Of a DNA stretch of 64,000 bases, positions 8,814 through 47,879 are shown piece after piece. The notes under the pieces are model-generated. The model was not told the origin of the DNA and ran no database searches. It saw nothing but the letters and a program-made list of their open reading frames with translations. Each line of letters opens with the position of its first letter. Positions within the stretch are counted from its first letter, which is position 1. The position numbers and the translations under genes were made by a program. This DNA is from a virus, in IMG/VR virus record IMGVR_UViG_3300050821_018577, positions 64,001-128,000 of that record. One strand, 5' to 3'.

Positions 8814-8816
8814 AAA

Positions 8817-11794: not shown

Positions 11795-11795
11795 A

Positions 11796-30922: not shown

Positions 30923-30977
30923 CCAACTATAGAGCAAAATGGTTTTGTGTGGATGAAGCAAGTGATACTATCCACGA

Positions 30978-31223
30978 ATGGTTTCACCGCTAACGCTTCC
31001 CGCTGTTGAAGGCTGGCCCTATCAGGAAGTATCGGCTGCCTTTATTCAGAAAGCGCACACCGGAGAGGCAGTCCCGAAAGTTCTGATGGTGGGATATAGC
31101 CTTTGGGCTCTTCTGCTGAAAGCCTCTGACACCGAAGTGTTCTACGTGTGCGGGACAATTCCGATTCGCTTTGAAAGAAGCGGGATCCTTGAACCACACG
31201 AATTTATGTTCACGCGCGATTGA
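30978..31223 (+). CDS. hypothetical protein
   Basis: 81 aa, inside the glycan cluster. Confidence 0.5.
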   Translation: MVSPLTLPAVEGWPYQEVSAAFIQKAHTGEAVPKVLMVGYSLWALLLKASDTEVFYVCGTIPIRFERSGILEPHEFMFTRD

Positions 31224-31237
31224 AAGGCGCCTTGCCC

Positions 31238-32452
31238 ATGATTACGCATCTCTGTGTGTGTGGCCTTGGCAAGTTAGGTTCGCCAATTTCCGCATCCTTT
31301 GCGAGGTCCATGTTCGTGGTCGGTTATGACCTGGACGCCGCGAAGGTAAATGCCATCAATCACGGCCATGCGCCAGTTGAAGAACCCGGCCTCGATGAAG
31401 CCGTTAGTTCCGCGGGATTGTTGTTGCGAGCGACCACTGACCCGGAAGAAGCTGTACGCAGCACTGACGCCTGCATTTTTGTCGCGCCGACGCCATCCTT
31501 GCCGGACGGAAGTTTCGATAATCAATACTTGCTCAACGGGATCGAGAAGATTGCTCCAGCAGTTGGTGGAAGGCCCTACATTTTCATCGTCGCATCGACC
31601 GTGACGCCAGGAAGTTGCCAGCATATTTTATTGCCGGCCATCCGCCGCCATTCCGACAAGATTGCCCTGGTCTACAAGCCGGAGTTGATTGCCCTCGGAA
31701 CGGTCATGCATGACCTGGCTAATCCGGACGTAGCATTGATAGGAGCCACAGACAAATGCGCCGCCGCCGAAGTATTCCGTCTCTATGCACGACTACGCGA
31801 TGTTGGCGCAACGGAATTCAAAATCATGTCCTTTGTCGAAGCGGAGCTCGCCAAGATTTCTCTGAACTGTGCCATTACCATGAAAATCAGCTTTGCTAAC
31901 CAGGTGAGCATGGTGGCGGAAAAGCTTGGTGCCGACCCTCACGCCATTTTGGAATTTATTGGCCGCGACAGCCGGATCGGTCCGAAAGTTCTGCGTCCGG
32001 GGACCCCATTCGGCGGGCCGTGTTTCCCGCGGGACAACCGGATGTTTCAGTACGTCGCGGAAAAAGTGAGTGTTAAAGCCCATCTGGCGTTGGCCACGGA
32101 CAAAATCAACGAAGATATCCTCTGGCATATCATCTCTTCCCTTCCGAAGAACGAGGAGGTCGGAATTCTGGGAGCCAGTTATAAAGCAGGCACAAATGTC
32201 ATTGAAGAATCGGCAGGGATGGCGCTATGTAAAAAACTAACAGCGCTCGGCCGCATCGTAAAACAGCATGACCCTCTCGTTGCCACGCCCGACAAGCTCG
32301 AGAACGTAATTCAGTGTCCGGTTGTCATTGTCACTCTCGATTGCCCGGAATACCGCGGGCTACAATTCCAACCAAGCCAATTTGTAGTTGACCCATGGCG
32401 CATCACCGGAAAACAAGTAGCGAAGGAGATTCCATGCCCAGTCTCATGTTGA
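31238..32452 (+). CDS. UDP-glucose/GDP-mannose dehydrogenase family protein
   Basis: GLGKLG Rossmann motif, EEPGL, STVTPG, ELAK...KISFAN, catalytic GGPCFPRD, LGASYKAGT. Confidence 0.92.
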   Translation: MITHLCVCGLGKLGSPISASFARSMFVVGYDLDAAKVNAINHGHAPVEEPGLDEAVSSAGLLLRATTDPEEAVRSTDACIFVAPTPSLPDGSFDNQYLLNGIEKIAPAVGGRPYIFIVASTVTPGSCQHILLPAIRRHSDKIALVYKPELIALGTVMHDLANPDVALIGATDKCAAAEVFRLYARLRDVGATEFKIMSFVEAELAKISLNCAITMKISFANQVSMVAEKLGADPHAILEFIGRDSRIGPKVLRPGTPFGGPCFPRDNRMFQYVAEKVSVKAHLALATDKINEDILWHIISSLPKNEEVGILGASYKAGTNVIEESAGMALCKKLTALGRIVKQHDPLVATPDKLENVIQCPVVIVTLDCPEYRGLQFQPSQFVVDPWRITGKQVAKEIPCPVSC

Positions 32453-32895
32453 TGATGATGTCCATGACTCCCGAACACAAACAGGACCTAATGCTCCTGC
32501 TCCCTTTTCTGCTTGGCCAGCTTGTTTATATTATGAAACGTGCAAGTTTTTCGATGCGCGCCGGAAGGGCCCCCACGCGATGGCAGTACGTGTATCGCAA
32601 TTGGGACATCCTTGTCTTTAGGTCGGTGCTCGAATTCCTTTTAATCTACATGCCGATTCGACATTTTTCTCCGGACCAACTTCTCAATGTGTTCCACATC
32701 GATGTAAGCCACATTGAGAGTCTTGATTTTTTGTATAATCCAGTGAGTTCACCGGTGAGCATTTTTGGGGCGGGAATCGCGTCCGACGGATTATTTGATT
32801 GGCTGGTCGATTGGGCATCCCGGTCGACAAAGATTCCGGCACCTATAAAGGCGTGGCTCACCGAGAATGTTCCGCCGATGCCGATGGCGCAATAG
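32434..32895 (+). CDS. membrane protein (holin-like candidate)
   Basis: RBS GAAGGAG; two to three hydrophobic segments. Confidence 0.6.
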   Translation: MPSLMLMMMSMTPEHKQDLMLLLPFLLGQLVYIMKRASFSMRAGRAPTRWQYVYRNWDILVFRSVLEFLLIYMPIRHFSPDQLLNVFHIDVSHIESLDFLYNPVSSPVSIFGAGIASDGLFDWLVDWASRSTKIPAPIKAWLTENVPPMPMAQ

Positions 32896-32896
32896 A

Positions 32897-33772
32897 ATGA
32901 GCCTGAACGGCAAAAAGCTGTATGTGCTGACGCCAATGTATGGCGGAAATCTTTCCGTCAACTATCACAGTTCCTTTTTCCAGCTGGTCCATGCCTTTGA
33001 AGAATTGAAACGCAAAGGCCTCGAAGTAGATTTGGAATCCCGTAGCGTGTGGAATGAGTCTTTGATTTCCCGGGCCCGCAACCGGCTGGCAGATTGTTTT
33101 CTAAAAGAAAGCTCCTTCACTCATGCCTGCTTTATCGATGCCGATATTGGTTTCGAGCCGGTGGACATCATTAGCATGCTCGAAATGGACAAAGACATCC
33201 TTGGTGTTCCTTGTTCCAAAAAATCCATCCGCTGGGACCGGATCCAAATGGCAGTCGCGCGTCGCGTTCTCGAATGGTCCAAAAATAGCCCAGCCTGCCA
33301 AAATGGATTCGACCCGGCCGCACTCGCGCAGCAGTTCGTAAGCTCCCAGGCGGCTTTCCCTCCTGACGTTATTTCCAGAATCGCCGGCGACTTTGTCCTA
33401 AACTTCCCTTTAGATGAGCAAGAAAAAATCATCAAATTCGATACACCAGAGCCAATGCGCCATGTTGGCACAGGCCTGTTGATGGTCAAGCGGGAAGTGT
33501 TTCTGAAATTCATGAAATGCTATCCCGACCGCTGGTATGAAGCGCGTTCTGATAATGCATCAAATCCCGGTCGCATCCATGATTTCTTCAAAGTTGGCGT
33601 CAATCCGGAAACTCGTGAGTACGATTCCGAGGATTACTGGTTTTGCCACGACTGCATCGCCATGGGCTACAAGATTCTAATTGCGCCATGGGTAAAAACC
33701 ACCCACATGGGCACCAATACGTTCATTGGCGACATGCCGGCCGCCCTGGCCTGTGCCGGCAGCATCTTCTAA
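32897..33772 (+). CDS. phage-type GT-A glycosyltransferase
   Basis: TPMYGG, ESLISRARN, FIDADIGF, GTGLLMVKREVF, SEDYWFC, THMG. Confidence 0.85.
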   Translation: MSLNGKKLYVLTPMYGGNLSVNYHSSFFQLVHAFEELKRKGLEVDLESRSVWNESLISRARNRLADCFLKESSFTHACFIDADIGFEPVDIISMLEMDKDILGVPCSKKSIRWDRIQMAVARRVLEWSKNSPACQNGFDPAALAQQFVSSQAAFPPDVISRIAGDFVLNFPLDEQEKIIKFDTPEPMRHVGTGLLMVKREVFLKFMKCYPDRWYEARSDNASNPGRIHDFFKVGVNPETREYDSEDYWFCHDCIAMGYKILIAPWVKTTHMGTNTFIGDMPAALACAGSIF

Positions 33773-33877: not shown

Positions 33878-34720
33878 ATGAAGACATTACTCAAGGCGCT
33901 TCTGCTGACCGTTTTGTTCCCGTTCTTCTGTTTTGCCCAGAATAAGACGATTGTCTCGGACTTTCTCTCCACTGCTGGCGGATCCGCCGTCACCGGAACC
34001 CTTACGGTCACGAATAACTCCACGATGATTACGGCGGATGGGTTCACTGTCCCACAGGGACAGGTGGTGACCGCACAGATTACCAGCGGCCAATTCTCTA
34101 TTTCCCTTGTTCCTAACGTTGGCGCGGCGCCCTATGGGTCTGTGTATTACGCGGATTATGTGACGAAGACCTCGCGCTACCGCGAAATCTGGAATGTGCC
34201 GAACAGCGCGACGGCCGTAAATCTTCTGGCTGTGCGGGTGGTTTGGCCGCAAGCGCCCAACGTCCTGATTCCCGCCTCGCAAGTCGTTCCACCACCCACC
34301 TGCACTCCCATCGCCGCCGGCAACAACAATCTGGTATTGCGCTACACAACCAATCCTGCCGGATGGATCTGTGCGCCCGATAACATCGGTGCCGTCACCA
34401 TGGACTTGGAGAATCCGACTCCAGTCGATGCCGGGAAATTCAATTGGGAACCGAAGAACGGCCTCAACCTAACGCGGATTTCCTGTTCAGTCGACAGTGG
34501 TTCAGTTTCCGTCAATCTGGACATACGCACAGAAGCTGCTCCGAATTCGCCAGGTACGCAGGTTCTTTCTGTGCCTTTAGTTTGCACGCCTACGACCGGA
34601 GCAACGACGGCTATTACGTTTCCCGCCGTTCCGCCTCAGTCGCCTGTGGCGCTGTTGATTACATCGACTGTCGGTAGCCCGGGAATTGTTCGAGTTCACG
34701 CAGAGTACATCCTCAACTAA
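33878..34720 (+). CDS. signal-peptide-bearing fibre/baseplate-like protein
   Basis: MKTLLKALLLTVLFPFFCFA|Q; LVPN..A.P..Y...EIW.VP beta domain; C-terminal jelly-roll-like head. Confidence 0.75.
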   Translation: MKTLLKALLLTVLFPFFCFAQNKTIVSDFLSTAGGSAVTGTLTVTNNSTMITADGFTVPQGQVVTAQITSGQFSISLVPNVGAAPYGSVYYADYVTKTSRYREIWNVPNSATAVNLLAVRVVWPQAPNVLIPASQVVPPPTCTPIAAGNNNLVLRYTTNPAGWICAPDNIGAVTMDLENPTPVDAGKFNWEPKNGLNLTRISCSVDSGSVSVNLDIRTEAAPNSPGTQVLSVPLVCTPTTGATTAITFPAVPPQSPVALLITSTVGSPGIVRVHAEYILN

Positions 34721-34733
34721 GGAGAATTACGTT

Positions 34734-35369
34734 ATGAAATCAGTGAAGGGAATTTTCAAGCATGGAATGCTGTTGCTGAGTTTGCTGGCGATCGGTGCGC
34801 TCGGCTACGGTGGCAGCGTCGAGAACCTGGTGTCGAAGAACCGCGTCAACATCCAGGCCAGGCACTGTCAGAAGTATATTGTCAACGACAAACACAAGCT
34901 GCCGGTCGGCACTCCGGACATCGGAGCGGCCGCCACGCACATCGATTACAAGGCCTGCGCCGCGGACCCGTCGACGCTGTTCTTTAATGAAACCAACCAC
35001 AACCTGCGCACGACTGCGGGCGGTGATTGGCAAGCCTCGGTGATGGCCAACACGTCGGCCCCGCCAGCGACGATGAACTATATCGCCCTGTCGAACGACG
35101 CGACTGCGCCGGCCGCCGGTGATACCTCGGTAGCTTCGGAGATCGTATCGAACGGCCTGAGCCGCGCCCAGGGTGTCTATGCCCACACGGCATCGACGGC
35201 CTCGCTCACGGTCCAGAAAGTGTTCAACGCCACCGGCACGCAGGCTAGCCAAAAGACCGGTTTACTTAATGCATCATCGTCCGGAACCCTCGGATTTGAA
35301 AACACTTACACCCAGGTGACCGTGAACAATGGCGACACTCTCACAGTCACATGGACAATAAACTATTAG
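34734..35369 (+). CDS. signal-peptide-bearing tail-collar-like protein
   Basis: RBS AAGGAG; MKSVKGIFKHGMLLLSLLAIGALGYG; YIALS...A.DTS..SEI...GL.R, GLLNASSSGTL..VNNGDTLTVTWTI. Confidence 0.8.
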   Translation: MKSVKGIFKHGMLLLSLLAIGALGYGGSVENLVSKNRVNIQARHCQKYIVNDKHKLPVGTPDIGAAATHIDYKACAADPSTLFFNETNHNLRTTAGGDWQASVMANTSAPPATMNYIALSNDATAPAAGDTSVASEIVSNGLSRAQGVYAHTASTASLTVQKVFNATGTQASQKTGLLNASSSGTLGFENTYTQVTVNNGDTLTVTWTINY

Positions 35370-35382
35370 CCTATGTCCGTTG

Positions 35383-35411
35383 TTGACAACCCATACTTCC
35401 TTCTGTATTAT
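35383..35411 (+). promoter_or_regulatory. sigma70 promoter of the HNH gene
   Basis: TTGACA, 17 nt, TATTAT; AGGAGG RBS downstream. Confidence 0.75.
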
Positions 35412-35428
35412 TCGGGCAGGAGGAAGTT

Positions 35429-36031
35429 ATGGAACAAGGCAACTGTTCTGATTGCGGGGTATTCAGGAGATGGCTTCATGGACATCACTTGAAACCGCGA
35501 ATCGAAGGCGGACAAGATGCTGATGGGAAAATTCGAATCTGTGCAAATTGCCACGAGGATCGCCATGGTGGCCCGTTTGGTGGAATTCTTCGCGGCAGAA
35601 CGTCAGCCACGCCCGCAGCTCGACGCAAAAAATCCAAGACGCTTCGGAAACTTTGGCAAGACCCCGAATACCGCCGTAAAACTCTGGCAGGACAGGAAAA
35701 AGCTCGACCGAATCGCGACAATCAAGCCATCGGCGCAAAGATTGCTGCGACTTGGACTCCAGAACGTCGCGCTGCCCAGTCCAAGCTCATCACTGAAATC
35801 AAAGCTAATGTGCTCGGTGACCGGTGGTCCTTGCATCATGATTGCTGTAAAGAATGCAAGCGAACTGACCGCCCGCATCAGGCAAACGGTTTATGCTCTA
35901 CTTGCTACACGAGCCGTTATTATAAAAATAAAAGGAAAAGGTCGCGTCGTCGGAAGTATCTCCGGGAATATATGCGCAAGCGTAGAGCCGACGAAAAGGC
36001 GGTATCAATTTCACCGACAGAAGTTTCATAG
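35429..36031 (+). CDS. HNH endonuclease with basic repeat and C-terminal zinc finger
   Basis: CSDC...HGHHLKPRIEGG...ICANCHEDRH; CKEC...H...GLCSTCY. Confidence 0.85.
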   Translation: MEQGNCSDCGVFRRWLHGHHLKPRIEGGQDADGKIRICANCHEDRHGGPFGGILRGRTSATPAARRKKSKTLRKLWQDPEYRRKTLAGQEKARPNRDNQAIGAKIAATWTPERRAAQSKLITEIKANVLGDRWSLHHDCCKECKRTDRPHQANGLCSTCYTSRYYKNKRKRSRRRKYLREYMRKRRADEKAVSISPTEVS

Positions 36032-36043
36032 AGACTAATTTGC

Positions 36044-37831
36044 GTGCGACGACTAACAAATACGGTGCGCTGGACGCTAGGATTCCTGGCGATGCTGGCG
36101 TTTTGTTCAGTGGCGCGCGCCGTGAATCAAAATGGTTCGGTCACCGAGAATCTAACCACCACGGCCAGCGCCACAGCGGTCAAGAATTGCCGGCCAGTCG
36201 GGATCGTCGAGTCGTACACGGTCGTCGATTCTGCCGCGGCGAACGCTGGCAGGGCTCCAACACCCACGGTAAACTTAACAGAATCCGATTCGGTGCAGGC
36301 CGCGCAGTCCGGGCACGCCTCTCCGTCGGTGACACTGACGGAATCGGATTCCGTAGCGGCGCCGGCGTTGCATCCGCGCGGAGTAGCGGAATCGTTGACC
36401 GAATCCGATTCCGTCGCTATCGCGAGCACGCACGCACGCGGCGCCGCGGTAACCGAATCCTTGACGGAGTCCGACGCAGCAGGAACCTCGCACTGCGCGG
36501 CCTGCGGGCTGACCGAAACCCATACCACCGCCGACTCCGTGGCGACGCAAATCTTTCACAACTTTTCTGCTTTGCCCACGCAAACACTTACGACCACCGA
36601 TTCACCGACGACCAATCTTGGTCGCAATGGACCGACCACCGAAACCTTGACGGAATCCGATTCGACCGCAGCTGTGCAACAGACTGGAGCGCATTCGGTG
36701 GCGGTTACCGAATCATTGAGCACAGTAGGCCTAGTTACGGGGATCGCGGCCCATTCAGCAACAGTGACCGAATCACTTACCACCAGCGATGCTGTGTCCG
36801 CGGTTCGCTGCGGAGCGGTCACGGAGAACCTGACGACGACGGATGTCGTCTCGGTGCATCACGTCCTCGTCGTTTCCATATCCGAGAGCGTTGTAGAGTC
36901 GGACAGCGCAGCGACGCAGCGCAGCGTTCACGCGGCCGCATCCCAAGTCTTGACGGAATCGGATTCGGCGGCGACTACGCATGCGGCGGTCGGGAACGTG
37001 ACCGAAACCTTGACCACGACGGCTTCCGTATCGACCTTGCGGAACGGCATCGCCAATCCGACGGTAACGCTAACGGAATCGGATTCTGTGGCTACGACGC
37101 ACGCGGCGGTTGGAAGAGTCTCAGAGATATTAAACGAATCGGATTCGACCGCTGGCGTGAGCTCCAGCATCCACACGGCGAGCGTCACAGAGAATCTTTC
37201 GCCGACGCAGACGGTGACGGCCACGGCCGTTCACCAGGTTGCCGTATCAACGTCGCTGACGGAATCGGATTCGGCGGCGGCCGTCCATGGAGCCATCGGC
37301 AACGTATCCGAGACGCTCACCGAGAGCGATTCCGTCGCCACGCTGCGCACGTCCATAGGTTCGGTATCGGAATCTCATTTAACCGTAGACAGCGTGACCG
37401 GGCATATTGTGACATCCGGATCTGCGACAGTTTCATTACTAGAATCAGATTCAGTCACAGCAAAGCTTTTCCATGCAGCATCGGTTACCGAAAGCCTGAC
37501 AACTGGCGACGTGGTCTCCACCGTATCTTCGCCGCATCTGCTCTTCGTCAACGTTACGGAAGCCTTATTCGAAACGGATTCGGTGACCAAGGTATCGCCG
37601 GCCCATCTATCCAGGTTCGTGACGGAAACCTTGACCACTGCAAGCGGCGTCAATACATCCTCACCGGGGCATGTGAGCGTAACCGAAACCCTGGCGGTCA
37701 GAGACAGTGTAACTGGCATATCGCCCAACCATTTCAGTATTACGGAGGTATTGACCGAATCCGACGCGGTTGGTGTTTTCGCGGTCCGGTTTGGGCAGCG
37801 CAGACGTTTTATGGTGGTCGACAGTCAGTGA
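36044..37831 (+). CDS. secreted Thr/Ser-rich repeat fibre protein
   Basis: Signal peptide ...LAFCSVARA|V; more than 25 units of about 20 aa with consensus V(T/S)E(S/T)LTESDSV. Confidence 0.85.
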   Translation: MRRLTNTVRWTLGFLAMLAFCSVARAVNQNGSVTENLTTTASATAVKNCRPVGIVESYTVVDSAAANAGRAPTPTVNLTESDSVQAAQSGHASPSVTLTESDSVAAPALHPRGVAESLTESDSVAIASTHARGAAVTESLTESDAAGTSHCAACGLTETHTTADSVATQIFHNFSALPTQTLTTTDSPTTNLGRNGPTTETLTESDSTAAVQQTGAHSVAVTESLSTVGLVTGIAAHSATVTESLTTSDAVSAVRCGAVTENLTTTDVVSVHHVLVVSISESVVESDSAATQRSVHAAASQVLTESDSAATTHAAVGNVTETLTTTASVSTLRNGIANPTVTLTESDSVATTHAAVGRVSEILNESDSTAGVSSSIHTASVTENLSPTQTVTATAVHQVAVSTSLTESDSAAAVHGAIGNVSETLTESDSVATLRTSIGSVSESHLTVDSVTGHIVTSGSATVSLLESDSVTAKLFHAASVTESLTTGDVVSTVSSPHLLFVNVTEALFETDSVTKVSPAHLSRFVTETLTTASGVNTSSPGHVSVTETLAVRDSVTGISPNHFSITEVLTESDAVGVFAVRFGQRRRFMVVDSQ

Positions 37832-37838
37832 GGCAACT

Positions 37839-38585
37839 ATGAATTTCCGACAATTCACAAGAGCGGCCATCGCATTTTTCTGTTCTCTGCTTCTCATCGC
37901 ACAGGTTGTACCGCAATCGTGCATAGTGCCGGCCAATGGCGCGGTGGTGAAGACAACCAGCTATTCGGCGCTGGCCGCCGACGCCGGCAAGCTCATCGTG
38001 ATGAACTGCGCGAGCGCCTGCACGTTGACACTACCTGCAACGCCGCAAACTCCCGTATGGTTGATTTTTGTCGAGACTATCGGTGCGGGTCAGGTCACAA
38101 TCGCACCGAACGGCTTGAATCTTAACGGTTCGGCTAGCAGTCTTGCCATGCCGTTGACCGCCGGAAGCACATTTCAGGTTTGGACAGATAATTCCAATTA
38201 TTTTGCCGCAGGCGTCACATTAAAGACTCGTGTGCTAGGTTGGGCATTCGGCGATGTAGCCACTGGCGCGGCGCTGACGACCAATGAGGTTGGCTACATT
38301 ACTGTCCCATTCGCATGCACAATCACAGGCTGGCACATCATGGCCGACGCCGGGACGGTTACGATTAAGACGGCACGCGTGAATAGCGGGACCGCTTTGC
38401 CAACCATCGGCTCAAACTCAATCTCAACCAGCGGCGTATCTTTGGCGAGCGGTACAAAAATAGATTCTACGACAGTCACTGACTTTACATCTACGGCGAT
38501 TGCGGCAAATGACACACTCGGATTCTTTATTACGACTGTTGCTACGGCGAAACAAATCACGTTCCAACTGGACTGCTCGCAATGA
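37839..38585 (+). CDS. secreted fibre-like protein (paralog A)
   Basis: Signal-like N-terminus; KTTSYSA.AAD.GKLIVMNCASACTLTLP domain; C-terminal spike-head-like domain. Confidence 0.8.
   Translation: MNFRQFTRAAIAFFCSLLLIAQVVPQSCIVPANGAVVKTTSYSALAADAGKLIVMNCASACTLTLPATPQTPVWLIFVETIGAGQVTIAPNGLNLNGSASSLAMPLTAGSTFQVWTDNSNYFAAGVTLKTRVLGWAFGDVATGAALTTNEVGYITVPFACTITGWHIMADAGTVTIKTARVNSGTALPTIGSNSISTSGVSLASGTKIDSTTVTDFTSTAIAANDTLGFFITTVATAKQITFQLDCSQ
37880..38150 (+). repeat. duplicated 5' segment, copy 1 (copy 2 at about 46615-46890)
   Basis: Near-identical DNA, e.g. GTACCGCAATCGTGCATAGTGCCGGC; differences mostly synonymous. Confidence 0.85.
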
Positions 38586-40804
38586 AATATCTAGTTTTTC
38601 TCATCGCGATACTATGCTTGTCGGTCCCGGCGTTCGCAGCCAACCCTGCATGGGTGCAGTCTGATGGCAGCTTTTCCGTAACCACTACCGCAACTTCCCA
38701 CACATATACTCTGACGCACACTCCTACAGCCGGTAACACGCTCGTTGCCTTTGTTTCCACGCACATTTCAGCGAATCAACAAATCAATTACGTGTGCGGC
38801 GGAACGAGTTGCACAAGCATCACTTCTACCGGAAAGTTCTTCCCGTACACATGGATTTATTGTCCGAACGGGAACAACTGTCCGGAAATCTGGATCGCCC
38901 GAAATGTCCCGGCTTCGATGTCCACCGTTACCATCAACTGGGCCGTAACTACTGTTTCTGACGTTCAGTTTGAAGAATACTCCAACGTCTCAGCAATCGG
39001 TCAGATAGTGCAGGCGACCGGGACTTCTACCGCTCCGGCCATCACCATCACGACGCAAGATGCGAACAACATCATCGTGATGGCGACATCTTCCCAAGGG
39101 AATGACGGGATACCAACTTCCAGCACTGGCAACCTGAGAGATGCTAGCCGGTCAGGGACGACCTCATCGTTCGACGCAGGCGCGGCCTGCGACAACAGTT
39201 CGGCAACGGCTGCCTCGGTTACGTGCCAAGTCACGATTACATCGAGTGCGTGGGCGGCGCTCGGCGTGGAACTTCGCAGCACGACCAGTACCGATACATC
39301 TAATTTCGTGTCGGCTTATCAGAGCAACTCCCCAGCCAGCGAGAACGTGGCGATGCCTTCTATCGCCGGAGTGTTTGTTCCCGACGCTTTCCTCCCTGGC
39401 AACACGGGTATCTGTTGGGGGGTGTGGCCATACAGCGCATCAGGGCAGACGCCGACAGTGACGACGCGGAACACGTTAACTGGCGCGACCGTCGATACGT
39501 TCACCAAAGACGTGCAAGTAAACGACACCAGTAATATGTCTACTGGAATATTCCGTGTCGCCGCGACCGCTGGAACTCAGTACATAAATTGGGCATGGGG
39601 AACGAGCATCAATAGCCAGCCTGGATTTGTTTACGGCTGCACGGAGATGAAGGGGATCACGACCAGTTCGCCCTTGGACGGTACGCCAGCCTCAGCGTCG
39701 GGGCTCTCAGGGGGAACCCTCAGCACCAGTGCCATGACGGTTACTGTCGGGGACATCATCGTTGTGGCCACTTCCATCGATACCATCGTACAGAATACAA
39801 ACAACCAGAATCAGGGAGTAGGCTATTGCGCGGCGGGGCCGGGATTCATTCTGCTGACGCCTTCTCCGGTGAGCGGCACATGCACCGAGTATCAGGTAGC
39901 GACCTCGACATCCGTGACCCCATCTATGTACGAAACCCCGGCCACTCCAAATAGCGCCTATGGTAGCGGTTACGTTTTCAATATCGTTGCCGTCGCGTAT
40001 AAGGCCAACTCCAGTCAAGGGACAGCCGCGACAGGCATCCACATTGGACGGCAATTTACCCCGGTAATCAGCGGTGGCAGCGGGGCAGTTGACAGTGGAA
40101 ATATTACTTGGACTCAGTGCCCAGCGGCAGGGAACTTCAACAGTTTTTATATCAGCAATTCATTGAGTGGAAGTCCTGAGACTGGCGTTTTCAAAATTTG
40201 GGACAGCAACCAAGTCGCTTATTCGATTAACGACCCCAGCAAGAACGCCAGCACCAACTCAGGGCCGTTTCTGCTGTATTCAGCAAACCAATCTCTCGAT
40301 AACTCCGCAATGTGCGAGTTGTATCAGGCTAGTTCCAACGGTAGCAACTCCGAGATGTTGCAGCGGGACATTTACAACGTAGCGACCTCGAACTTCTTCG
40401 ACACGATGAGCACCACTTGTCCCTCAACTTCGAGCTACAACGCAACTGGATGCATTGGTGACAATCAACCGTTCGGCTCTACCTACGCGCAATCTCCAAA
40501 CATTCAGCCAAGCGCCGCTGGCGAACTCGTACTCGCCAGTCTTTCAAATGGGGTAGGACCGGAAGCAGGTCTATCTTCCCCCAGCGGAGCCATCTACGAT
40601 TGCCCTTACTTCTCGGCTATGACGGATGGTGGCTCTACCTGTTACGGCGAGGGTCACGCTCATTTCTATACTACCGGGTCATCCTCGCTGAACTTCACTT
40701 GGACAGCGGGAACAAATGCCACTGGAACTTCGGTTTCGAGCGCCATCGCCATCAAAGCGGCTCCGGCCGCCGCAGCTAAGAGCGGGAAGACGGTAATCTT
40801 TTGA
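38582..40804 (+). CDS. secreted multi-domain beta-sandwich fibre protein
   Basis: MKYLVFLIAILCLSVPAFA|A; repeated domains (GNTLVAFV, GNTGICW, GDIIVVA, GELVLA); many paired Cys. Confidence 0.8.
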   Translation: MKYLVFLIAILCLSVPAFAANPAWVQSDGSFSVTTTATSHTYTLTHTPTAGNTLVAFVSTHISANQQINYVCGGTSCTSITSTGKFFPYTWIYCPNGNNCPEIWIARNVPASMSTVTINWAVTTVSDVQFEEYSNVSAIGQIVQATGTSTAPAITITTQDANNIIVMATSSQGNDGIPTSSTGNLRDASRSGTTSSFDAGAACDNSSATAASVTCQVTITSSAWAALGVELRSTTSTDTSNFVSAYQSNSPASENVAMPSIAGVFVPDAFLPGNTGICWGVWPYSASGQTPTVTTRNTLTGATVDTFTKDVQVNDTSNMSTGIFRVAATAGTQYINWAWGTSINSQPGFVYGCTEMKGITTSSPLDGTPASASGLSGGTLSTSAMTVTVGDIIVVATSIDTIVQNTNNQNQGVGYCAAGPGFILLTPSPVSGTCTEYQVATSTSVTPSMYETPATPNSAYGSGYVFNIVAVAYKANSSQGTAATGIHIGRQFTPVISGGSGAVDSGNITWTQCPAAGNFNSFYISNSLSGSPETGVFKIWDSNQVAYSINDPSKNASTNSGPFLLYSANQSLDNSAMCELYQASSNGSNSEMLQRDIYNVATSNFFDTMSTTCPSTSSYNATGCIGDNQPFGSTYAQSPNIQPSAAGELVLASLSNGVGPEAGLSSPSGAIYDCPYFSAMTDGGSTCYGEGHAHFYTTGSSSLNFTWTAGTNATGTSVSSAIAIKAAPAAAAKSGKTVIF

Positions 40805-43218
40805 GACGCTTATTTCTATGTGTCTTATTCCTTCTTGCCATGCCTACGCTTGCGCACGCACAATTATGGTCAGGAATTCTCGACCCCAGCCGAGGCATTG
40901 ACTGGACGCAGGCTGGTGTCGTCGGAGGTATTCCTTCAGCTACGTGGACGCAATGCGGTTCGACTCTTCCCTCTACGTCAACAGTTGCACAAGTACAAGC
41001 TGCAATAAATGCTTGTGGGACTAATCAATTCGTACAACTTGGATCTGGGAATTTCAGTTTCTCAACCTTTCTGAACATGAAGTCCAACATGGTCCTCCGA
41101 GGCTTGGGTGCCAATCAGACAACCCTTACCTTTGGCAGCAACGCCATTGGTGGAGGTTGTTTTTTAGGAGGGTCAACAATCTGCTTCACCAACGATGGCG
41201 GCACCTACAACAACTCTTTTGACAGTGCTCCGGGTCAATCGAATGCGGCGAATTGGACGGCAGGATTCTCGCAGGGAACGACTTCGATTACCGTGGGCAG
41301 TGTCGGTTCTGTCGGCATCAGAAACGGTCAGTATATTTATCTCGACCAGGCTAACGACACGGCACCGAATAGCAACCTGTTTATCTGCGACATCATAACG
41401 ACTTGCGCCATCGAGGGTGCTTCTCCTGGTCGCACTATTGGCGGCGTCAGTCACAGTCAGTTGCAGGCCGTAAAGGTCACTGCGGGATGCGCGACGCTCT
41501 GTACAGGTGCAGGACCATTTACGCTTACGATTACCCCGGGACTTTATGGAATAAATTGGAGTAGTTCTAAGGCCCCTGGTGCGTGGTTCCCGACGATTCC
41601 AATTTCAAACGCTGGGGTAGAAAACCTAACTATAAATAATCAGACCGCGACCGGAGACAACGGTTCCACTATTAACTTCATGAACGCATTTAACTGTTGG
41701 GTGACTGGAGTAGCCTCTCTTCATGGCGGACGAGCGCACGTTTGGATTACGAACGGGGCGCACATCACGGTCCAAAACAATTATTTCTATCAGACCCAGG
41801 ACGCGGCTTCCCAGAGCTACGGAATAGAAGTGGAACTAGCCAGCGATACCATGGTCGTAAATAATATTTTTCAGCAAGTGACCGCTCCAAATATCGGTGG
41901 CTCCGAGTTTGGAAACGTTTATGCATACAACTACTCGATTAACCATTTTCAAACTGGGTCCGTAAACTGCATGTACCCAAACGGAATCGCTCACGACGCA
42001 GCCGCAGAATACAACCTTTGGGAAGGCAACTTTTCCGAGAACGTTGAAGGAGATGATGTCCACGGAACTAGCGGACTTAACACGCTCTTTCGCAATATTT
42101 TCACGGGATACGAACTTGGCAAGATTTGCTCGACGATTGCCATCGTGTGGGATCCCTACAACCGCGATGAGAACGTTGTAGGAAACATCCTGGGGACGCC
42201 GGGGATTACGACGCTATACTACATTACGGACCCATTTAACGCTGGCGGTGTGTACGACTCCGGCTTGGTTCACGGCGGGATAGGTCCTGATTCAGTTGTT
42301 GGCACTACTATGCTTCGCTGGGGTAACTACGACAACGTGACAGGGTTCGTTAGATGGTGCGGCAATAGCAGCGACACGGGATGGTCCAATGTCAACGGCT
42401 GCAACAGCACATCTGAAGTTCCGACTAGCGGGGTCGGCTCACCCAGCTATGCTAATGCTGTCCCAAGTAAGGGCGATACAGGGATTGGGCAGAGCGCGAT
42501 GCCTGCGTCTTTCATATACGCCTCGCAGCCTAGCTGGTGGCCTAGCGGGAAGCCCTGGCCCCCGGCAGGCCCCGACATAAGCAGTGGGAGTATCGGTCAA
42601 TGTACTAGCGGAACTTATTCAGGGCTCATGGCTACGGCTTCGGGCCAGTGCGCGGGAGGGACATTCTCAGCGCATATTAACGCGGGCCATGCCAACAGCA
42701 ATCCAGCGATGGATTGTTTTTTGACCACGATGGCTGGGCCTCCGGACGGGTCAGGAAACGCGCTGAGTTTCAACGCTGCGACATGTTATTCCGCCCCGGC
42801 CAACGCGCCGACGGTCTCCTTGAATCCAACGAGTTTGAGCTTCGGTGCGGTGAACGTTGGAAAGGTTTCTGCGGCGCAGACCGTGACGTTGACCAACACA
42901 GGCACGGCCACGCTGAACATCACCAGCATCGCGCCGAGCGACGCGACCAACTACGCGATTTCGGCGAACACCTGTGGCGCAACCTTGACCATCGGAAATA
43001 ATTGCATTGTGAGCGTCACCTTCAATCCGACAACGCCTGGGGTGCACAACGCGAACTTGATTTTCATGACGAACGCTTCGACCAGCCCGAACAACGCGCC
43101 TCTATCCGGAACCGGGGTCAGTGTCACTCCAGTCTGTTTGGAAACACTGACAGAGCTCGATGCCTCGACCGGTCTGCGCGCTACTATACCGCAGCAAAAA
43201 TATGCGTGCCATCCATGA
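40801..43218 (+). CDS. secreted parallel beta-helix (depolymerase-like) protein with C-terminal ASH/choice-of-anchor D domain
   Basis: ...AMPTLAHA|Q; AQVQAAINAC..VQLGSGNF beta-helix cap; LSFGAVNVG..SAAQTVTLTNTGTATLNI...VTFNPT. Confidence 0.85.
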   Translation: MRRLFLCVLFLLAMPTLAHAQLWSGILDPSRGIDWTQAGVVGGIPSATWTQCGSTLPSTSTVAQVQAAINACGTNQFVQLGSGNFSFSTFLNMKSNMVLRGLGANQTTLTFGSNAIGGGCFLGGSTICFTNDGGTYNNSFDSAPGQSNAANWTAGFSQGTTSITVGSVGSVGIRNGQYIYLDQANDTAPNSNLFICDIITTCAIEGASPGRTIGGVSHSQLQAVKVTAGCATLCTGAGPFTLTITPGLYGINWSSSKAPGAWFPTIPISNAGVENLTINNQTATGDNGSTINFMNAFNCWVTGVASLHGGRAHVWITNGAHITVQNNYFYQTQDAASQSYGIEVELASDTMVVNNIFQQVTAPNIGGSEFGNVYAYNYSINHFQTGSVNCMYPNGIAHDAAAEYNLWEGNFSENVEGDDVHGTSGLNTLFRNIFTGYELGKICSTIAIVWDPYNRDENVVGNILGTPGITTLYYITDPFNAGGVYDSGLVHGGIGPDSVVGTTMLRWGNYDNVTGFVRWCGNSSDTGWSNVNGCNSTSEVPTSGVGSPSYANAVPSKGDTGIGQSAMPASFIYASQPSWWPSGKPWPPAGPDISSGSIGQCTSGTYSGLMATASGQCAGGTFSAHINAGHANSNPAMDCFLTTMAGPPDGSGNALSFNAATCYSAPANAPTVSLNPTSLSFGAVNVGKVSAAQTVTLTNTGTATLNITSIAPSDATNYAISANTCGATLTIGNNCIVSVTFNPTTPGVHNANLIFMTNASTSPNNAPLSGTGVSVTPVCLETLTELDASTGLRATIPQQKYACHP

Positions 43219-43793
43219 AAAATGTGCTCTGCTTCACGGTGCTTGCCTCGTTCGCCATGGGCGGTTGTCCGCGCAATCAGCCGAAGGCGCACAGTGTCGC
43301 GGTGACGCAGACTTTGCCGTCGGCCAGTTTGAATTGTGTGACGGTCCGGCGGAATCCTAAAACCAACGAAGCGGAAACCCTCGACTGCATTGATTCGGTC
43401 ACGGTCAGCGCTCCACAGCACGCGATGGCCACCGTAGCAGAGGTCCTCGCCGAGAGCGATGTCAATATGTCCGTACACGGAGCCGTAACTTCCGTGTCCG
43501 AGACCACCATGGTCAACGACATTATCCTGGCGGGACGGCTGCCGGTCTTCGCTGCGGAGAACGTCTCCGAGGTTCTAGCTGAGCAGGACCTCGCTGTAAA
43601 TCGGTCCGACCACGGCTCGGCCATCCAAGAAGGAGTTGCGGAGGCCGATTCGACCGACAGGAAGCGCAAGGTACGCGTTTCAATTTCGGAAACCGTTTTG
43701 ACCGTTGACAGCTTATACTGTCCCTTGCATGCTATCGCGCAGGTCATCGAAACGCTTACGACGACTGACCAGTTGACGTGCAGCGGAATTTAA
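43215..43793 (+). CDS. predicted lipoprotein with E.L.E.D.V repeats
   Basis: MKNVLCFTVLASFAMGG|C lipobox-like; AEVLAESDV, SEVLAEQD, SETVLTVDS repeats. Confidence 0.65.
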   Translation: MKNVLCFTVLASFAMGGCPRNQPKAHSVAVTQTLPSASLNCVTVRRNPKTNEAETLDCIDSVTVSAPQHAMATVAEVLAESDVNMSVHGAVTSVSETTMVNDIILAGRLPVFAAENVSEVLAEQDLAVNRSDHGSAIQEGVAEADSTDRKRKVRVSISETVLTVDSLYCPLHAIAQVIETLTTTDQLTCSGI

Positions 43794-43803
43794 TGGTGAG
43801 CGA

Positions 43804-44511
43804 ATGAGCACCCCGCCAACACCACCTGTTGATGGATCGTCGTCCCTTGACCTAACAGACTTGGGGACGATAAAGCAGTGGATCCCGGGTCTTGCGGGCA
43901 ATACGACCGACGACCAATTACTGCAAGCCTGCATTACCGCATGGGGATTTGAGTTTTTAAGCCGCACCGGTTTCGGCGACCAGAATGGAGACAATCTCCA
44001 GTCTCCCTTCAATGCCATCTGTAATTTCAATGAGACTTACAACGGATCAGGAACCTCACGACTTTATCTACGCAATCGGCCAATCCGTACTGTGACCTCG
44101 CTCACCATCAACGACATCGCGATAAATCCGTCCACCTCCAATTCTGCGGCAGGCTGGGTGGTCGACGGAAACGCAAGAAGCATTCATTTGCGCGGCGGTT
44201 CCAGCGGTTGGAGTGGAAGCCTCCCGCAGATGGCTTGGCAAGCCGGCGCGTACCGTGCATTCGGCGGTGGCATGAAATTCTTTGTAGGCGTGCAAAACGT
44301 CAATGTGCTATACACAGCCGGCTACTCCAGCACACCAGCGGACATTGTGCAATGCGCGAACAAGGTCGTACATCTAAACTACAAGCGACGGTCATACACT
44401 GACGAGGAATCTCGCGCTATGGCCGGCGGAGCCGGAACAATTCGCTATGCGCAATGGGACATCCCGCGAGAATGCCAGATAGTGGTCGACCGATATACAC
44501 GGACTTTGTAA
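43804..44511 (+). CDS. head-tail connector/adaptor
   Basis: DLTDLGTIKQW, ETYNGSG..RLYLRNRPI, NVLYTAGYSSTPADI. Confidence 0.85.
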   Translation: MSTPPTPPVDGSSSLDLTDLGTIKQWIPGLAGNTTDDQLLQACITAWGFEFLSRTGFGDQNGDNLQSPFNAICNFNETYNGSGTSRLYLRNRPIRTVTSLTINDIAINPSTSNSAAGWVVDGNARSIHLRGGSSGWSGSLPQMAWQAGAYRAFGGGMKFFVGVQNVNVLYTAGYSSTPADIVQCANKVVHLNYKRRSYTDEESRAMAGGAGTIRYAQWDIPRECQIVVDRYTRTL

Positions 44512-45023
44512 TGCTCAAAATTTCTTTCATCAATAATTCCGACCAACGCCTGGTAGAAACCTTGCGAACAAAGGGCCCGGCGATTGTGCGGGCCATCGTG
44601 AGCAAACTAAATGAGCTCATGATTAGCCTGCAAAGCTACATCGTATCGAGCAAGCTGTCCGGACAAGCCCTACAGAGGCGCACGGGAACGCTTGCCGGAA
44701 GCGTTCGTTACATTCCCGCAGTCCTTGAGGGAACAACAATCACTGGAGCCGTCGAAGGGGCAGGAGGACCCGCCTGGTACGGGTCGCTCTATGAGGACAC
44801 AGATGCTGGCGGTACCGGTGGCGTGCCCCATTCCTGGCTGATTACGGCCAGCAAGGCCAGGGCCCTCTCGTTCCTCGTGGACGGCAAGCGCGTGTTCGCG
44901 CGCAGTGTCATGCATCCTCCTTTGGTTGCGCGGCCATTTATGACTCCTGCGCTCGACGAAAACGCTGCGGATATCGAAGCGCAGTTACGCGCGGCCGTTG
45001 ATGCCGAGGTACTCAAACCGTGA
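44511..45023 (+). CDS. neck/tail completion protein (HK97 gp10-like)
   Basis: RRTGTLAGS, V.HPP..ARPFMTPAL. Confidence 0.75.
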   Translation: MLKISFINNSDQRLVETLRTKGPAIVRAIVSKLNELMISLQSYIVSSKLSGQALQRRTGTLAGSVRYIPAVLEGTTITGAVEGAGGPAWYGSLYEDTDAGGTGGVPHSWLITASKARALSFLVDGKRVFARSVMHPPLVARPFMTPALDENAADIEAQLRAAVDAEVLKP

Positions 45024-45496
45024 GAGGTACCCGTGAGGCCATTAGTGTCGCACTTTTCAATCTGCTCTCTGGCAACCAACAGCTCACCAGTCTCTGCAAG
45101 ACCATCACGCGCACGCCGCGGATCTGGACGTCCGTTAATGACGCCGAAAAGCCTTTCCTGCTTTTATTTAAAGGAGGCCCGGCAACAGAGCATTTTGACC
45201 AGCCGCAGGCCGGCAGGATTGCGCTAACAAAATACATCATCCATTACAATTTATGGCTGTACCTTACGGCAGACCCATCCGGGCAGAACAACGCAGAAAC
45301 GGTCGTGAATAACATCTCCGATGCCCTTGACGCCGCAATGCAAGTGAACGCGTCGCCACCTGCATTTGGCGAGCGGCAGACCCTAGGAGGCCTTGTCAAT
45401 AACGCCTGGATCGATGGCGGGTCGGAGTGGGGCCGGGAATTTGAAGACCAAAACTTGGTTGTTTTTTGGAGGATCAGCGTGGAGACTGGAATTTAG
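45020..45496 (+). CDS. tail terminator-like protein
   Basis: Position; REAISVALF..., QTLGGLV. Confidence 0.7.
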   Translation: MRGTREAISVALFNLLSGNQQLTSLCKTITRTPRIWTSVNDAEKPFLLLFKGGPATEHFDQPQAGRIALTKYIIHYNLWLYLTADPSGQNNAETVVNNISDALDAAMQVNASPPAFGERQTLGGLVNNAWIDGGSEWGREFEDQNLVVFWRISVETGI

Positions 45497-45721
45497 ATGG
45501 ACGGACCAAAAACAGCGAAGCAGTTCAATGCGCCATTAACCGGCGAATTAACGATTATGGCCCAGCCCGGGAATTTTACGATGGCCAGCGGCTATGCACA
45601 CCAGTTGGCCATGGACGCGGAACTAGCCCGATACCGCAAACTATTCGATGCACTAGCCAATCTGGTTCAGGACCCTGAGCTCCCGCTCGCGATTGTCATG
45701 CGCATCATTGAGGTTGATTAG
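45497..45721 (+). CDS. hypothetical protein
   Basis: Abuts the previous stop. Confidence 0.5.
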   Translation: MDGPKTAKQFNAPLTGELTIMAQPGNFTMASGYAHQLAMDAELARYRKLFDALANLVQDPELPLAIVMRIIEVD

Positions 45722-45787
45722 ACCAAAAAAACTTCTTCCATGTGGTGCATTTCTTCTATACGGTTTTGGTGAGATGCAGGAGTCCAC

Positions 45788-46558
45788 ATGCGCATAGCTT
45801 TTGGAGCCGGCCAGCTCTTTGCGTTGCCCGGGCCATTCTTCGGCGGCACTTTCAATGCCTCTCCTGTCTGGTTCGCCACCCTCCAGGACGTCGACGTAAC
45901 AATCGACGCGACCATCAAAGAACTGCGCGGCAACCTTCAGTTTCCAGACGACACGGCCATCAGCGACAAGAAAATCACCTGGAAGGCAGGTACCGGCCGG
46001 TTCTCGATCGATACCTGGAACAATCTTTATTTTGGCGACGTCATTAGCACTGGCAGCAACTCTGGAGGCAGCGGCGCCGGCGGTGGCGTTCCACAAGTCC
46101 AGGAAGCTGTCACGCTCAATGCCACGACTTATACGGTTGCGCATTCTGCAAACTTCACCCAGGATATGGGCGTCATTTACGGCTCAACGCTCCAGCTTTT
46201 ACAGAAAGTCACCGGCGTACCCACCCTAGGCCAGTACAATGTGTCCGCCGGTGTGTACGGTTTCAGCACTTCCGATAACAACAAAGCGATTTTGGTTTCC
46301 TACCGCTACGGGATCACCACCGGCCGCGTGCTCGTTGTCCAAAACCACGTTCAGGGATGGGGGCCACAATTTGAAATGTTGCTTTCGCAGCCCTATCAGG
46401 AATTGACCGCGGGCATCCCAAACTATTTGGACCTGTATGCTTGCAAGTGCGGAAAACTCACTGCCCCGCTAAAGCGCGCCGACTATTTGATTTCCGACCT
46501 CGAGGGCCAAGCGTTCGCTAACAGCGCCGGATTCATCGGCGAGTTTTACGAAGATTAA
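45788..46558 (+). CDS. major tail tube protein with inserted domain
   Basis: FGAGQLF..LQDVDV...KELRG..QFP; RBS AGGAG. Confidence 0.85.
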   Translation: MRIAFGAGQLFALPGPFFGGTFNASPVWFATLQDVDVTIDATIKELRGNLQFPDDTAISDKKITWKAGTGRFSIDTWNNLYFGDVISTGSNSGGSGAGGGVPQVQEAVTLNATTYTVAHSANFTQDMGVIYGSTLQLLQKVTGVPTLGQYNVSAGVYGFSTSDNNKAILVSYRYGITTGRVLVVQNHVQGWGPQFEMLLSQPYQELTAGIPNYLDLYACKCGKLTAPLKRADYLISDLEGQAFANSAGFIGEFYED

Positions 46559-46562
46559 AAGT

Positions 46563-47828
46563 GTGTTGGCCCAAAGGCGCGCCGCCATCCCGAGAATAGC
46601 CGCAGCGTTCGCTTGCTCTCTGCTGCTCATCGCACAGGCTGTACCGCAATCGTGCATAGTGCCGGCGAATGGCGCGGTGGTAAAGACGACCAGTTATTCG
46701 GCGCTGGCCGCCGACTACGGCAAGCTCATCGTGATGAACTGCGCAAGCGCCTGCACGCTGACCCTACCTGCAACGCCGCAATCTCCGGTGTGGTTCATCT
46801 GGGTCGAGACCGTCGGCGCAGGTCAGGTCACGGTCAGCCCGAACGGCCTCAACTTCAACGGATCTTCCGCGAGCATCGTCCTACCGGTCAGTGCCGGGGC
46901 CGGGGTCTCGGTTTGGACCGACAATCTAAACTATTTTGGCAGCCAGGTCTCTTACTTCACGACTACCGGCTCTCCTTCATCTGGAAACCTCGCTAAATTT
47001 TCCGGTGCAACCTCCGTCACGAATGCCGACCTGTCCGGAGACTGCACGACCTCTGGCACTGCGGCGATGACCTGCACGAAGACCAACGGCACGGCGTTCG
47101 CCACGAGCGCGACCACAGACACAACGAACGCCTCGAACGTCTCCAGTGGGACTTTGGGCGCGGCGCGCGTGGCGCAAATAAACCTCGCTGCGTCCGGCAA
47201 CGGCGGAGTCGGAGGAAATCTTCCGGTCGGAAACTTGAACAGCGGCATCGGCGCCAATTCCTCGACTGCTTGGCGTGGAGATGGAACATGGGGCCCTACG
47301 CCAGCAATGGTTGGTATCCCGAATACGACCACGGTTGTCGTCAGTGGAAATGTGTCGACACCTCAAAATATGCAATCGGCGTCCTCGGCCATAGTGGCGG
47401 GCGCTTTAAATACTCTAGGTAAAACCGTCAGAATTACTTCTTATGGCTCGTTTTTCCCGGTCAACAATTCAGAGACTGTATCTCTAAGGTTTACACCAGG
47501 TCCCGCAAGCCTTACCGCAGCCGTCCTGTTTGGCACTTTCGTTCCAACATTGGCCAACGCCAACTACGTTTGGAAGATGTCTTTTATATGCACAACGACC
47601 ACGACTGGCGCAAGCGGGACCCTGACGTGTATCGGGGATCTAAGTATCCAACTTCCGGGCGCAGCGACGCTGGAAGCCACCTACTTCATGGGCGTTCCTC
47701 CTAGTACGTTGTTTACTGGCCTTGACCTAACCTCGGCCCTTACACCTCTCAATGCCATTGCTTTTGGCACTGCATCGACGACGAATCAGGCATCGAGTAC
47801 TTACTTTCTTGTGGAACAACTAAACTAA
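46563..47828 (+). CDS. secreted fibre-like protein (paralog B)
   Basis: Same signal and N-domain as 37839; GNLAKF, LSGDCTTSG, GNLPV.NLNSG..A.SST.WRGDGTW fibre motifs. Confidence 0.8.
   Translation: MLAQRRAAIPRIAAAFACSLLLIAQAVPQSCIVPANGAVVKTTSYSALAADYGKLIVMNCASACTLTLPATPQSPVWFIWVETVGAGQVTVSPNGLNFNGSSASIVLPVSAGAGVSVWTDNLNYFGSQVSYFTTTGSPSSGNLAKFSGATSVTNADLSGDCTTSGTAAMTCTKTNGTAFATSATTDTTNASNVSSGTLGAARVAQINLAASGNGGVGGNLPVGNLNSGIGANSSTAWRGDGTWGPTPAMVGIPNTTTVVVSGNVSTPQNMQSASSAIVAGALNTLGKTVRITSYGSFFPVNNSETVSLRFTPGPASLTAAVLFGTFVPTLANANYVWKMSFICTTTTTGASGTLTCIGDLSIQLPGAATLEATYFMGVPPSTLFTGLDLTSALTPLNAIAFGTASTTNQASSTYFLVEQLN
46615..46890 (+). repeat. duplicated 5' segment, copy 2
   Basis: Matches 37880-38150. 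Confidence 0.85.
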
Positions 47829-47850: not shown

Positions 47851-47879
47851 TTGACACTGGTACGGACCAGAATTATTCT
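47851..47879 (+). promoter_or_regulatory. sigma70-type promoter
   Basis: TTGACA, 17 nt, TATTCT; the spacer holds the inverted repeat CTGGT-ACGG-ACCAG. Confidence 0.6.

Follow-up and report, generated by a model that had tools for sequence, protein, structure and literature searches.

The DNA analysed here, a stretch of 64,000 nucleotides (hereafter the window), corresponds to bases 64001-128000 of IMGVR_UViG_3300050821_018577, a single virus record of 178,858 bases rated complete by CheckV. Among the late genes of this phage are eight, each named below by its first position in the window (33878, 34734, 36044, 37839, 38582, 40801, 43215 and 46563), whose products are strongly supported by their sequences as proteins with cleavable type I signal peptides, one of them lipoprotein-like, and for all of which export is well supported. 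Together they make up a movable cassette in the late operon (33878-43793 plus 46563-47828). Two of the eight, 37839 and 46563, are strongly supported as trimeric tail-fibre-tip proteins that carry a signal peptide where true fibres carry a virion anchor; a third, 40801, is strongly supported as the phage copy of an exported beta-helix protein from the Wzx/Wzy polysaccharide loci of the hosts. The reading preferred here, to which a probability of about 0.5 is assigned, is that these exported accessory proteins act late in infection on the infected cell, at its surface polysaccharide or its receptors; the step from export to an action on surface glycans, as opposed to a place in the virion, is one that we infer.

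Signal peptides of the eight proteins

The eight genes, all confirmed on the + strand at the starts given, are as follows.

33878-34720, + strand: 280 residues, signal with predicted cut between CFA and Q
34734-35369, + strand: 211 residues, signal with predicted cut between GYG and G; ribosome-binding site AGGAG 6 nt upstream
36044-37831, + strand: 595 residues, Ser/Thr-rich, with repeats of ~20 residues (V-T/S-E-x-L-T-E-S-D-S); signal present if the GTG start is used
37839-38585, + strand: 248 residues; signal, then module A (residues 30-124) and module B (residues 125-248), two beta-sandwich modules
38582-40804, + strand: 740 residues, all-beta, 16 Cys in the mature part; textbook signal with predicted cut between AFA and A
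40801-43218, + strand: 805 residues, predicted to be exported; pectate-lyase-type beta-helix family, C-terminal Ig-like domain at residues 670-770
43215-43793, + strand: 192 residues, lipobox-like signal with AMGG before C
46563-47828, + strand: 421 residues, paralogue of 37839; signal and module A, followed by a mosaic fibre body of another kind

Signals were called by a fixed heuristic rule, run on the 39 + strand genes of the window with curated starts, which required a net positive n-region, an uncharged core 8-15 residues long and averaging at least 1.9 in hydropathy, small residues at positions -3 and -1, and cleavage between residues 15 and 38. An earlier note, made by a model from the sequence alone, had claimed that these eight genes begin with signal-like peptides and that the connector, tube, TMP and tail-tip genes do not: the rule flagged the same eight of the 39 and none of the other 31, a set that includes the portal, MuF, capsid, glycosyltransferase and methyltransferase, adaptor, neck and tube genes, the chaperones, TMP, Dit, hub, NlpC/P60 and gpJ-like genes, and the Gly-rich gene 57364. 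The occurrence of signals in seven of eight consecutive genes has a chance probability of ~1.6e-6, taking a background of 5% and allowing for 260 positions. As to the cleavage sites, the small residues described in that note were recovered, at -3 and -1; the lipobox-like sequence of 43215 (F-A-M-G-G followed by C) fits at -1 and +1 but is atypical in having Met at -3 and Gly at -2.

Comparison between homologues suggested cleavage by a host enzyme rather than retention as an uncleaved anchor, since a small residue and a Gln are kept after the core in most of them: Ala, Gly, Ser or Cys followed by Gln stands directly after the hydrophobic core in 69 of the 87 signal-bearing homologues in the 37839 family and in 86 of 98 in the 40801 family, against a background of 10%. 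In the latter family the signal varies between homologues and the mature start, WSGI..DW..AGVVGGIP, is fixed; similarly, 38582 and its 86% homologue P0122 differ in the hydrophobic core and have the mature start in common.

In Bacteroidetes, substrates of signal peptidase I have been described as following a 'Q rule', with Gln after the cut, and so have some genes of Porphyromonas phages (PMC10367356). The predicted cut would expose Gln in ~80-88% of the signal-bearing homologues considered here, a Q rule in families centred on Acidobacteriota.

The many paired Cys reported in the earlier note were borne out as an enrichment (Cys makes up 1.93% of residues across the eight mature parts, compared with 0.73% across 15 virion proteins; Fisher p 2.7e-7) but less so as pairs, the count being even in only four of the eight mature proteins. 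Genes for a signal peptidase and for DsbA-like thioredoxins were sought across the phage genome, and none was found. Three of the eight genes (38582, 40801 and 43215) each overlap the preceding stop by 4 nt. More signal-bearing proteins are encoded elsewhere in the same genome, on both strands, among them the following, which lie outside the window.

G000:C1:61949-63787, - strand: GH123-like glycoside hydrolase, signal-bearing
G000:C1:137173-138414: TPM-domain protein, signal-bearing
G000:C1:59147-59830: lipoprotein-like gene

Fibre-tip proteins 37839 and 46563

Gene 37839 has 2808 representative homologues, in which module A occurs in up to six repeats in long proteins, and module B is C-terminal in most of the top matches, the protein lengths ranging from 105 to 2239 residues. 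The structure model of 37839 (pLDDT 90.5) was found to resemble, among PDB entries, the N-terminal domains of CBA120 tailspike 4, T4 gp9, a Klebsiella phage baseplate and Agrobacterium phage fibres, and matched 440 viral models, many of them labelled tail fibre or tailspike. When the mature protein was modelled as a homotrimer, a score of 0.81 was obtained as opposed to 0.00 for the best control, with runs agreeing on at least 84% of contacts and a pLDDT of at least 90; in a calibration undertaken with two copies rather than three and with other alignments, 20 of 30 solved pairs and one of 23 single chains came up to the mark applied to this score, and likeness to solved fibre trimers may raise the score. 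These predictions support the assignment of 37839 as a trimeric fibre tip.

The paralogue 46563 is 69% identical to 37839 over ~140 residues corresponding to module A, and its body is composed of short modules common to many fibre proteins. It has been inserted between the tail-tube and chaperone genes, at a place where relatives have no such gene.

Because 86 of the 150 best matches to 37839 (from the 2808 representatives) begin with a signal under a stricter rule, the signal-bearing fibre design seems to be widespread in soil phages. Many of the signal-free members among the same 150 begin with the motif LNDTTPAAP..G...KWQ, which is found in none of the eight signal genes and which also opens the following gene.

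57364-58605, + strand: Gly-rich gene, 413 residues, signal-free, directly after the gpJ-like tip gene

Since its N-terminal motif is common to signal-free fibre proteins of many phages, 57364 is probably the true anchored tail fibre of this phage; in a prophage tail module, a signal-free member from elsewhere, P0138, likewise follows the gpJ-like gene immediately. With signal-free members opening on the motif of 57364 and others on a signal, the fibre family thus has two forms, one with its virion anchor, at the position classical for fibres, and one with a signal peptide instead. A further member, P0142, located on a 487-kb contig, is an isolated module B remnant of 160 residues and was uninformative as a chromosomal copy.

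Gene 40801 and host polysaccharide loci

More than 800 homologues of 40801 were recovered, and precomputed assignments to PF12708 or PF13229 were present on 15 of the 119 listed (35-80% identity). A Pfam scan of 40801 itself matched only the C-terminal Ig-like domain, and comparison of the family profile with solved structures in the PDB returned just a weak match to a GH28 exopolygalacturonase (E 0.029). In the phage copy, the His, Glu and Asp positions that are invariant across the family have been preserved.

A scan of one genome per species yielded 196 relatives, and gene neighbourhoods were counted for the best 80, which derive mostly from Acidobacteriota on contigs of up to megabases, the closest (66%) being in an Acidobacteriaceae genome. 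At least one of Wzx, Wzy_C, UDP-glucose dehydrogenase (UGDH), GT1 or an AsnB-like protein is encoded within 6 kb at 54 of these 80 loci, and two or more such polysaccharide markers at 39 of the 62 with full flanks. At two loci viewed in detail, the relative of 40801 adjoins genes for UGDH and a Wzx flippase, with Wzy_C and glycosyltransferases near. It is on account of the 54 relatives that adjoin Wzx/Wzy-type genes that 40801 is regarded as a copy of a host polysaccharide-locus protein. Joint capture of the phage UGDH with 40801 was considered and rejected, because the phage enzyme is only ~30% identical to its counterpart in the host locus.

The C-terminal part of 40801 (residues 666-805; window 42796-43218) shares 97% identity with the C-terminal end of a protein encoded on the other strand (G000:C1:51004-53595, - strand), a signal-bearing product of 863 residues that is otherwise unrelated to 40801. 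This identity of the Ig-like ends points to a recent exchange or a shared partner.

Late-gene order and placement of the signal genes in related phages

The phage is a large, uncultured siphophage from soil, probably with Acidobacteria of Acidobacteriaceae-like type as hosts. Its capsid protein (22029-23726) is ~37% identical to Brevundimonas phage proteins, and it has no close cultured relative. Since the complete record yielded no integrase, resolvase or large serine recombinase, the phage is probably virulent. The order of genes in the window, with the row for 57364 given above, is as follows.

5186, + strand: DnaB
13060-16449, + strand: portal fused to a 2H phosphoesterase
18984, + strand: MuF
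22029, + strand: capsid
24969-33772, + strand: cluster of glycosyltransferases, four FkbM methyltransferases and UGDH, assigned by Pfam (the glycosyltransferase cluster)
33878-43793, + strand: seven signal genes and one HNH-like gene (the block)
43804-45496, + strand: head-tail adaptor, neck or tail-completion protein, and third small virion gene, all signal-free
45788-46558, + strand: probable tail tube, signal-free; matches phrog_8234 (function not named), 'tube' being read from position
46563-47828, + strand: eighth signal gene
47925 and 48458, + strand: chaperones
48811, + strand: TMP
51325, + strand: Dit (DUF2460)
52021, + strand: hub
52953, + strand: NlpC/P60
53437-57360, + strand: gpJ-like tip protein
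59422, + strand: RecT

Twelve related phage loci were fetched using the probable tail-tube protein. In the window the signal genes lie between the last glycosyltransferase gene and the adaptor, and again between the tube and the chaperones. In the relative L011 the corresponding glycosyltransferase gene abuts the adaptor, small signal genes lie between UGDH and that glycosyltransferase gene, and one fibre-repeat signal gene lies between Dit and hub; in another relative, L003, two signal genes follow TMP. The locus L015, which holds the nearest relative of 38582 and 40801, has its signal block ahead of lysis genes, with holin-like genes and a peptidase gene coming next. In L016, which is a Mu-like prophage recovered from a metagenome of wood, four consecutive signal genes (7359-12226) stand between Portal_Mu and Mu F, the last of the four being P0126, a 28% homologue of 38582; L018 and L024 each have three in a row, in L018 ahead of the lysis genes. 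It is this variation in placement within the late operons of several phage types that leads the cassette to be read as mobile.

Several genes of the glycosyltransferase cluster are 45-68% identical in L007, L008, L009 and L011, between the capsid and neck genes. The cluster is conserved in relatives that have other signal genes or none, and similar signal-gene cassettes occur in other phages without it. No flippase or polymerase was detected within 24969-33772.

As a separate matter, the portal gene runs in frame into its 2H phosphoesterase domain, which belongs to the 2',5' RNA ligase family and gives a sub-threshold Acb1-like match.

Other genes of the block

Pfam and PHROG scans of the eight signal proteins returned almost nothing: there was no match for 33878 or 43215, and only a weak PHROG match for 34734 (phrog_5417, E 0.0045). 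Residues 15-165 of 33878 are 44% identical over 151 residues to P0154, a signal-bearing protein of 692 residues that ends in the fibre-tip domain (module B). Among the atlas clusters nearest to 36044, 29 of 30 are without a Pfam family, and those listed are viral; its 20-residue repeat is also found in 43215, at the protein level only, and no tandem DNA repeats were detected in the block. The few homologues of 38582, including P0122 in a related phage and P0126 in L016, are all on phage or prophage contigs, and its nearest atlas clusters are viral; an AlphaFold model built from six sequences (pLDDT 37.6) was not used. No match to 38582, 36044 or 46563 was obtained by tblastn against 50,697 phage records, and a scan of viral contigs with 38582 gave no relative.

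The likeness to collar, fibre and spike proteins that the earlier note had seen in the mature parts is upheld on structural grounds for 37839 and 46563, through the beta-helix Pfam families assigned to homologues for 40801, and through the module shared with P0154 for 33878; it is weaker for 34734, 36044, 38582 and 43215, where it amounts to viral nearest atlas clusters or just the 20-residue repeat.

The block also contains one signal-free gene, preceded by a promoter-like site.

35383-35411, + strand: promoter-like site TTGACA-17-TATTAT, 11/12 consensus, in the 60-nt gap before the HNH-like gene
35429-36031, + strand: 200 residues, basic, Cys/His-rich, with an HNH-like motif, signal-free

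Although without a Pfam or PHROG match, 35429 is probably, to judge from its sequence, a free-standing homing endonuclease inside the block, and may mark the region as a recombination hot spot. A second promoter-like site (47851-47879, TTGACA-17-TATTCT) overlaps a small hairpin just after 46563, ahead of the tail chaperone genes. Such sites are matches to the consensus only, and their number in the region is not above that in shuffles.

Proposed role of the exported proteins and its alternatives

According to the preferred reading, late in infection the host Sec system would export the eight proteins and signal peptidase I would cut them, often exposing Gln, after which they would fold with disulfides in the envelope, having bypassed the cytoplasmic tail-assembly line. 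There their targets would be the surface polysaccharide or receptor of the cell itself, which they would bind or cut, so that the slime layer would be loosened before the burst and receptors masked or destroyed; progeny and competing phages would thereby not be lost on the dying cell. An accessory role is favoured because the core tail genes and 57364 are signal-free and the virion is complete without the eight, and because 40801 belongs to host polysaccharide loci and the genome encodes more exported proteins, including the GH123-like glycosidase. Action during lytic growth is favoured because there is no integrase-type gene and the signal genes are tightly packed with structural genes.

Several points weigh against this reading. 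The export call comes from a heuristic rule and sequence comparison, and the polysaccharide activity is deduced from gene neighbourhood and fold only, the GH28 match of 40801 being weak. The fibre-like members are without a recognisable enzyme domain or a known receptor, and 34734, 36044, 38582 and 43215 are without an assigned function. Translational coupling to structural genes and the presence of tail-fibre modules would equally fit true virion parts, and in the podovirus-like contigs L018 and L017 signal genes occupy the usual position of the receptor-binding gene.

These last points lead directly to an alternative considered unlikely, in which the exported fibres, oxidised in the periplasm, dock on finished particles at lysis and are real receptor-binding parts of the virion. 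It gains from the fibre or spike folds, from the supported trimer of 37839, from the resemblance of module A to the docking domains at the N-terminus of branched tailspikes, CBA120 TSP4 among them, and from the embedding of the genes in the structural operon to which they are coupled; L024 can be added to L018 and L017 as a locus with signal genes at the usual place of the fibre gene, ahead of the lysis genes, and the Cys enrichment would suit proteins that endure outside the cell. No virion-docking domain was identified on the eight proteins, however, and a complete signal-free tail already has its own anchored fibre gene in 57364. Unlike structural genes ordered by assembly, the signal genes also differ in operon place between phages, and 40801 comes from a chromosomal family of polysaccharide loci. 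Literature searches turned up no tailed phage with such an export route and no account of Sec signals on tailed-phage fibres. That a two-compartment route, with some fibres or spikes exported by Sec, disulfide-bonded and joined to the particle as the envelope breaks, operates in this phage and in the soil-phage families that share its modules is accordingly regarded as improbable.

Also doubtful is the suggestion that the proteins form a cell-surface coat or adhesin serving a carrier cell, in lysogeny or a carrier state, in the manner of the MAT (mosaic adhesive trimer) adhesins of Bdellovibrio. The design is the same as that of MAT fibres, namely a signal, an adjoining conserved domain and a mosaic trimeric tip (PMC10769870), and similar cassettes do occur in the Mu-like prophage L016. 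Against this, the complete record yielded none of the integration functions sought, no surface-anchor or outer-membrane domain was seen on the proteins, and, because a promoter-like site of its own is present only for the HNH-like gene, expression of the block seems tied to the late lytic operon.

That the proteins are not exported, their hydrophobic N-termini being start-codon artefacts, oligomerisation helices or uncleaved membrane tethers, is very unlikely. Three of the eight starts are indeed GTG (36044 and 46563) or TTG (40801). An ATG at codon 17 of 36044, where the Atlas record begins, would cut off its signal, and the database record of 40801, with 792 residues, is 13 residues shorter than the product of the TTG start; codon 14 is an in-frame ATG. 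Yet the other five starts are ATG, and each of the eight is the first plausible one past the upstream stop, 36044 being the sole weak call; the possibility raised in the earlier note, that the true starts lie downstream of the hydrophobic segments, was not borne out. The signal and the following Gln are kept in hundreds of homologues, no second hydrophobic segment is present in any of the eight proteins, and the rule flagged none of the other 31 genes. An artefact of start-codon choice was rejected on the evidence of the starts, of homologue conservation and of these unflagged genes.

A locus of the serine-rich-repeat glycoprotein adhesin type, in which the glycosyltransferase cluster directly upstream would glycosylate the Ser/Thr-rich, repetitive 36044 and its neighbours for export, is scarcely credible, given that Pfam scans of 24969-33772 and the block found no accessory-Sec gene, that no LPXTG-type cell-wall sorting end was seen and the signals are short and canonical, that the inferred hosts are diderm, and that the cluster is kept in relatives with other signal genes or none and signal cassettes occur without such clusters. 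This parallel, drawn in the earlier note, is not supported; from the same interpretation, export is well supported, and the cell-envelope alternative agrees with the preferred reading of proteins acting on the surface of the infected cell.

Comparison with known systems and significance

Tailed phages assemble in the cytoplasm, and a few small receptor-masking proteins that are exported are known from phages. Envelope proteins that are exported and whose genes adjoin phage tail genes include Llp of T5, Cor of phi80 and N15, and Lom and Bor of lambda; T5 Llp masks the receptor FhuA and is linked to superinfection exclusion. Like the genes described here, these are phage genes with a signal or lipoprotein signal among or beside tail and fibre genes, but they are single and encode small proteins that are not fibre-like, whereas the cassette has eight genes with products of up to 805 residues. 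Among glycan-processing enzymes, periplasmic or secreted, of exopolysaccharide operons (AlgG, AlgL, PslG, PelA and BcsZ), AlgG is a right-handed beta-helix. The bacterial relatives of 40801 are similarly signal-bearing beta-helix proteins in Wzx/Wzy loci, although no membership of 40801 in these enzyme families was found at the sequence level. Virion tailspikes (CBA120 TSP1-4; PDB 7rej, 7rfv) have in common with the cassette proteins an N-terminal beta-sandwich, beta-helix bodies, trimeric tips and the occurrence of paralogues in one block; the difference is that they have a cytoplasmic N-terminal anchor and no signal, while here a signal takes the anchor's place.

The MAT fibres of Bdellovibrio bacteriovorus consist of a signal, a domain that is conserved, rich in beta structure and ~130 residues long, a trimeric body and swapped tips (Caulton et al. 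2024, PMC10769870), and 13 of 21 MAT proteins carry an S74 chaperone-protease (PMC10769870). Compared by published design, the two systems are alike in the signal and conserved beta-rich domain, in phage-fibre-like trimers, in many paralogues and in display outside the cytoplasm of a diderm cell. They differ in that MAT proteins are encoded by chromosomal genes of a predator rather than in a phage late operon, and S74 was not seen here. The Porphyromonas phage genes that obey the Q rule, which are of unknown function, were interpreted by their authors as adapted to the secretion machinery of the host and as possibly modifying the envelope (Matrishin et al. 2023, PMC10367356); they too are phage genes with a predicted cut exposing Gln, but the host phylum is another, and no fibre-like or tail-module proteins are named in PMC10367356.

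An exported cassette of eight genes within a structural operon unites receptor-masking exports with fibre-like trimers of the predator type, and includes both tail-fibre tips copied without their anchor and a homologue of a host slime-locus enzyme. If the proteins join the virion, the textbook rule of cytoplasmic assembly for tailed phages would need an exception, in the form of a two-compartment route not described for tailed phages. If, as preferred here, they act on the surface of the infected cell, they would be phage tools of a new class, serving to mask receptors and to allow release through the slime layer, and would offer enzymes and binders with specificity for acidobacterial polysaccharides.

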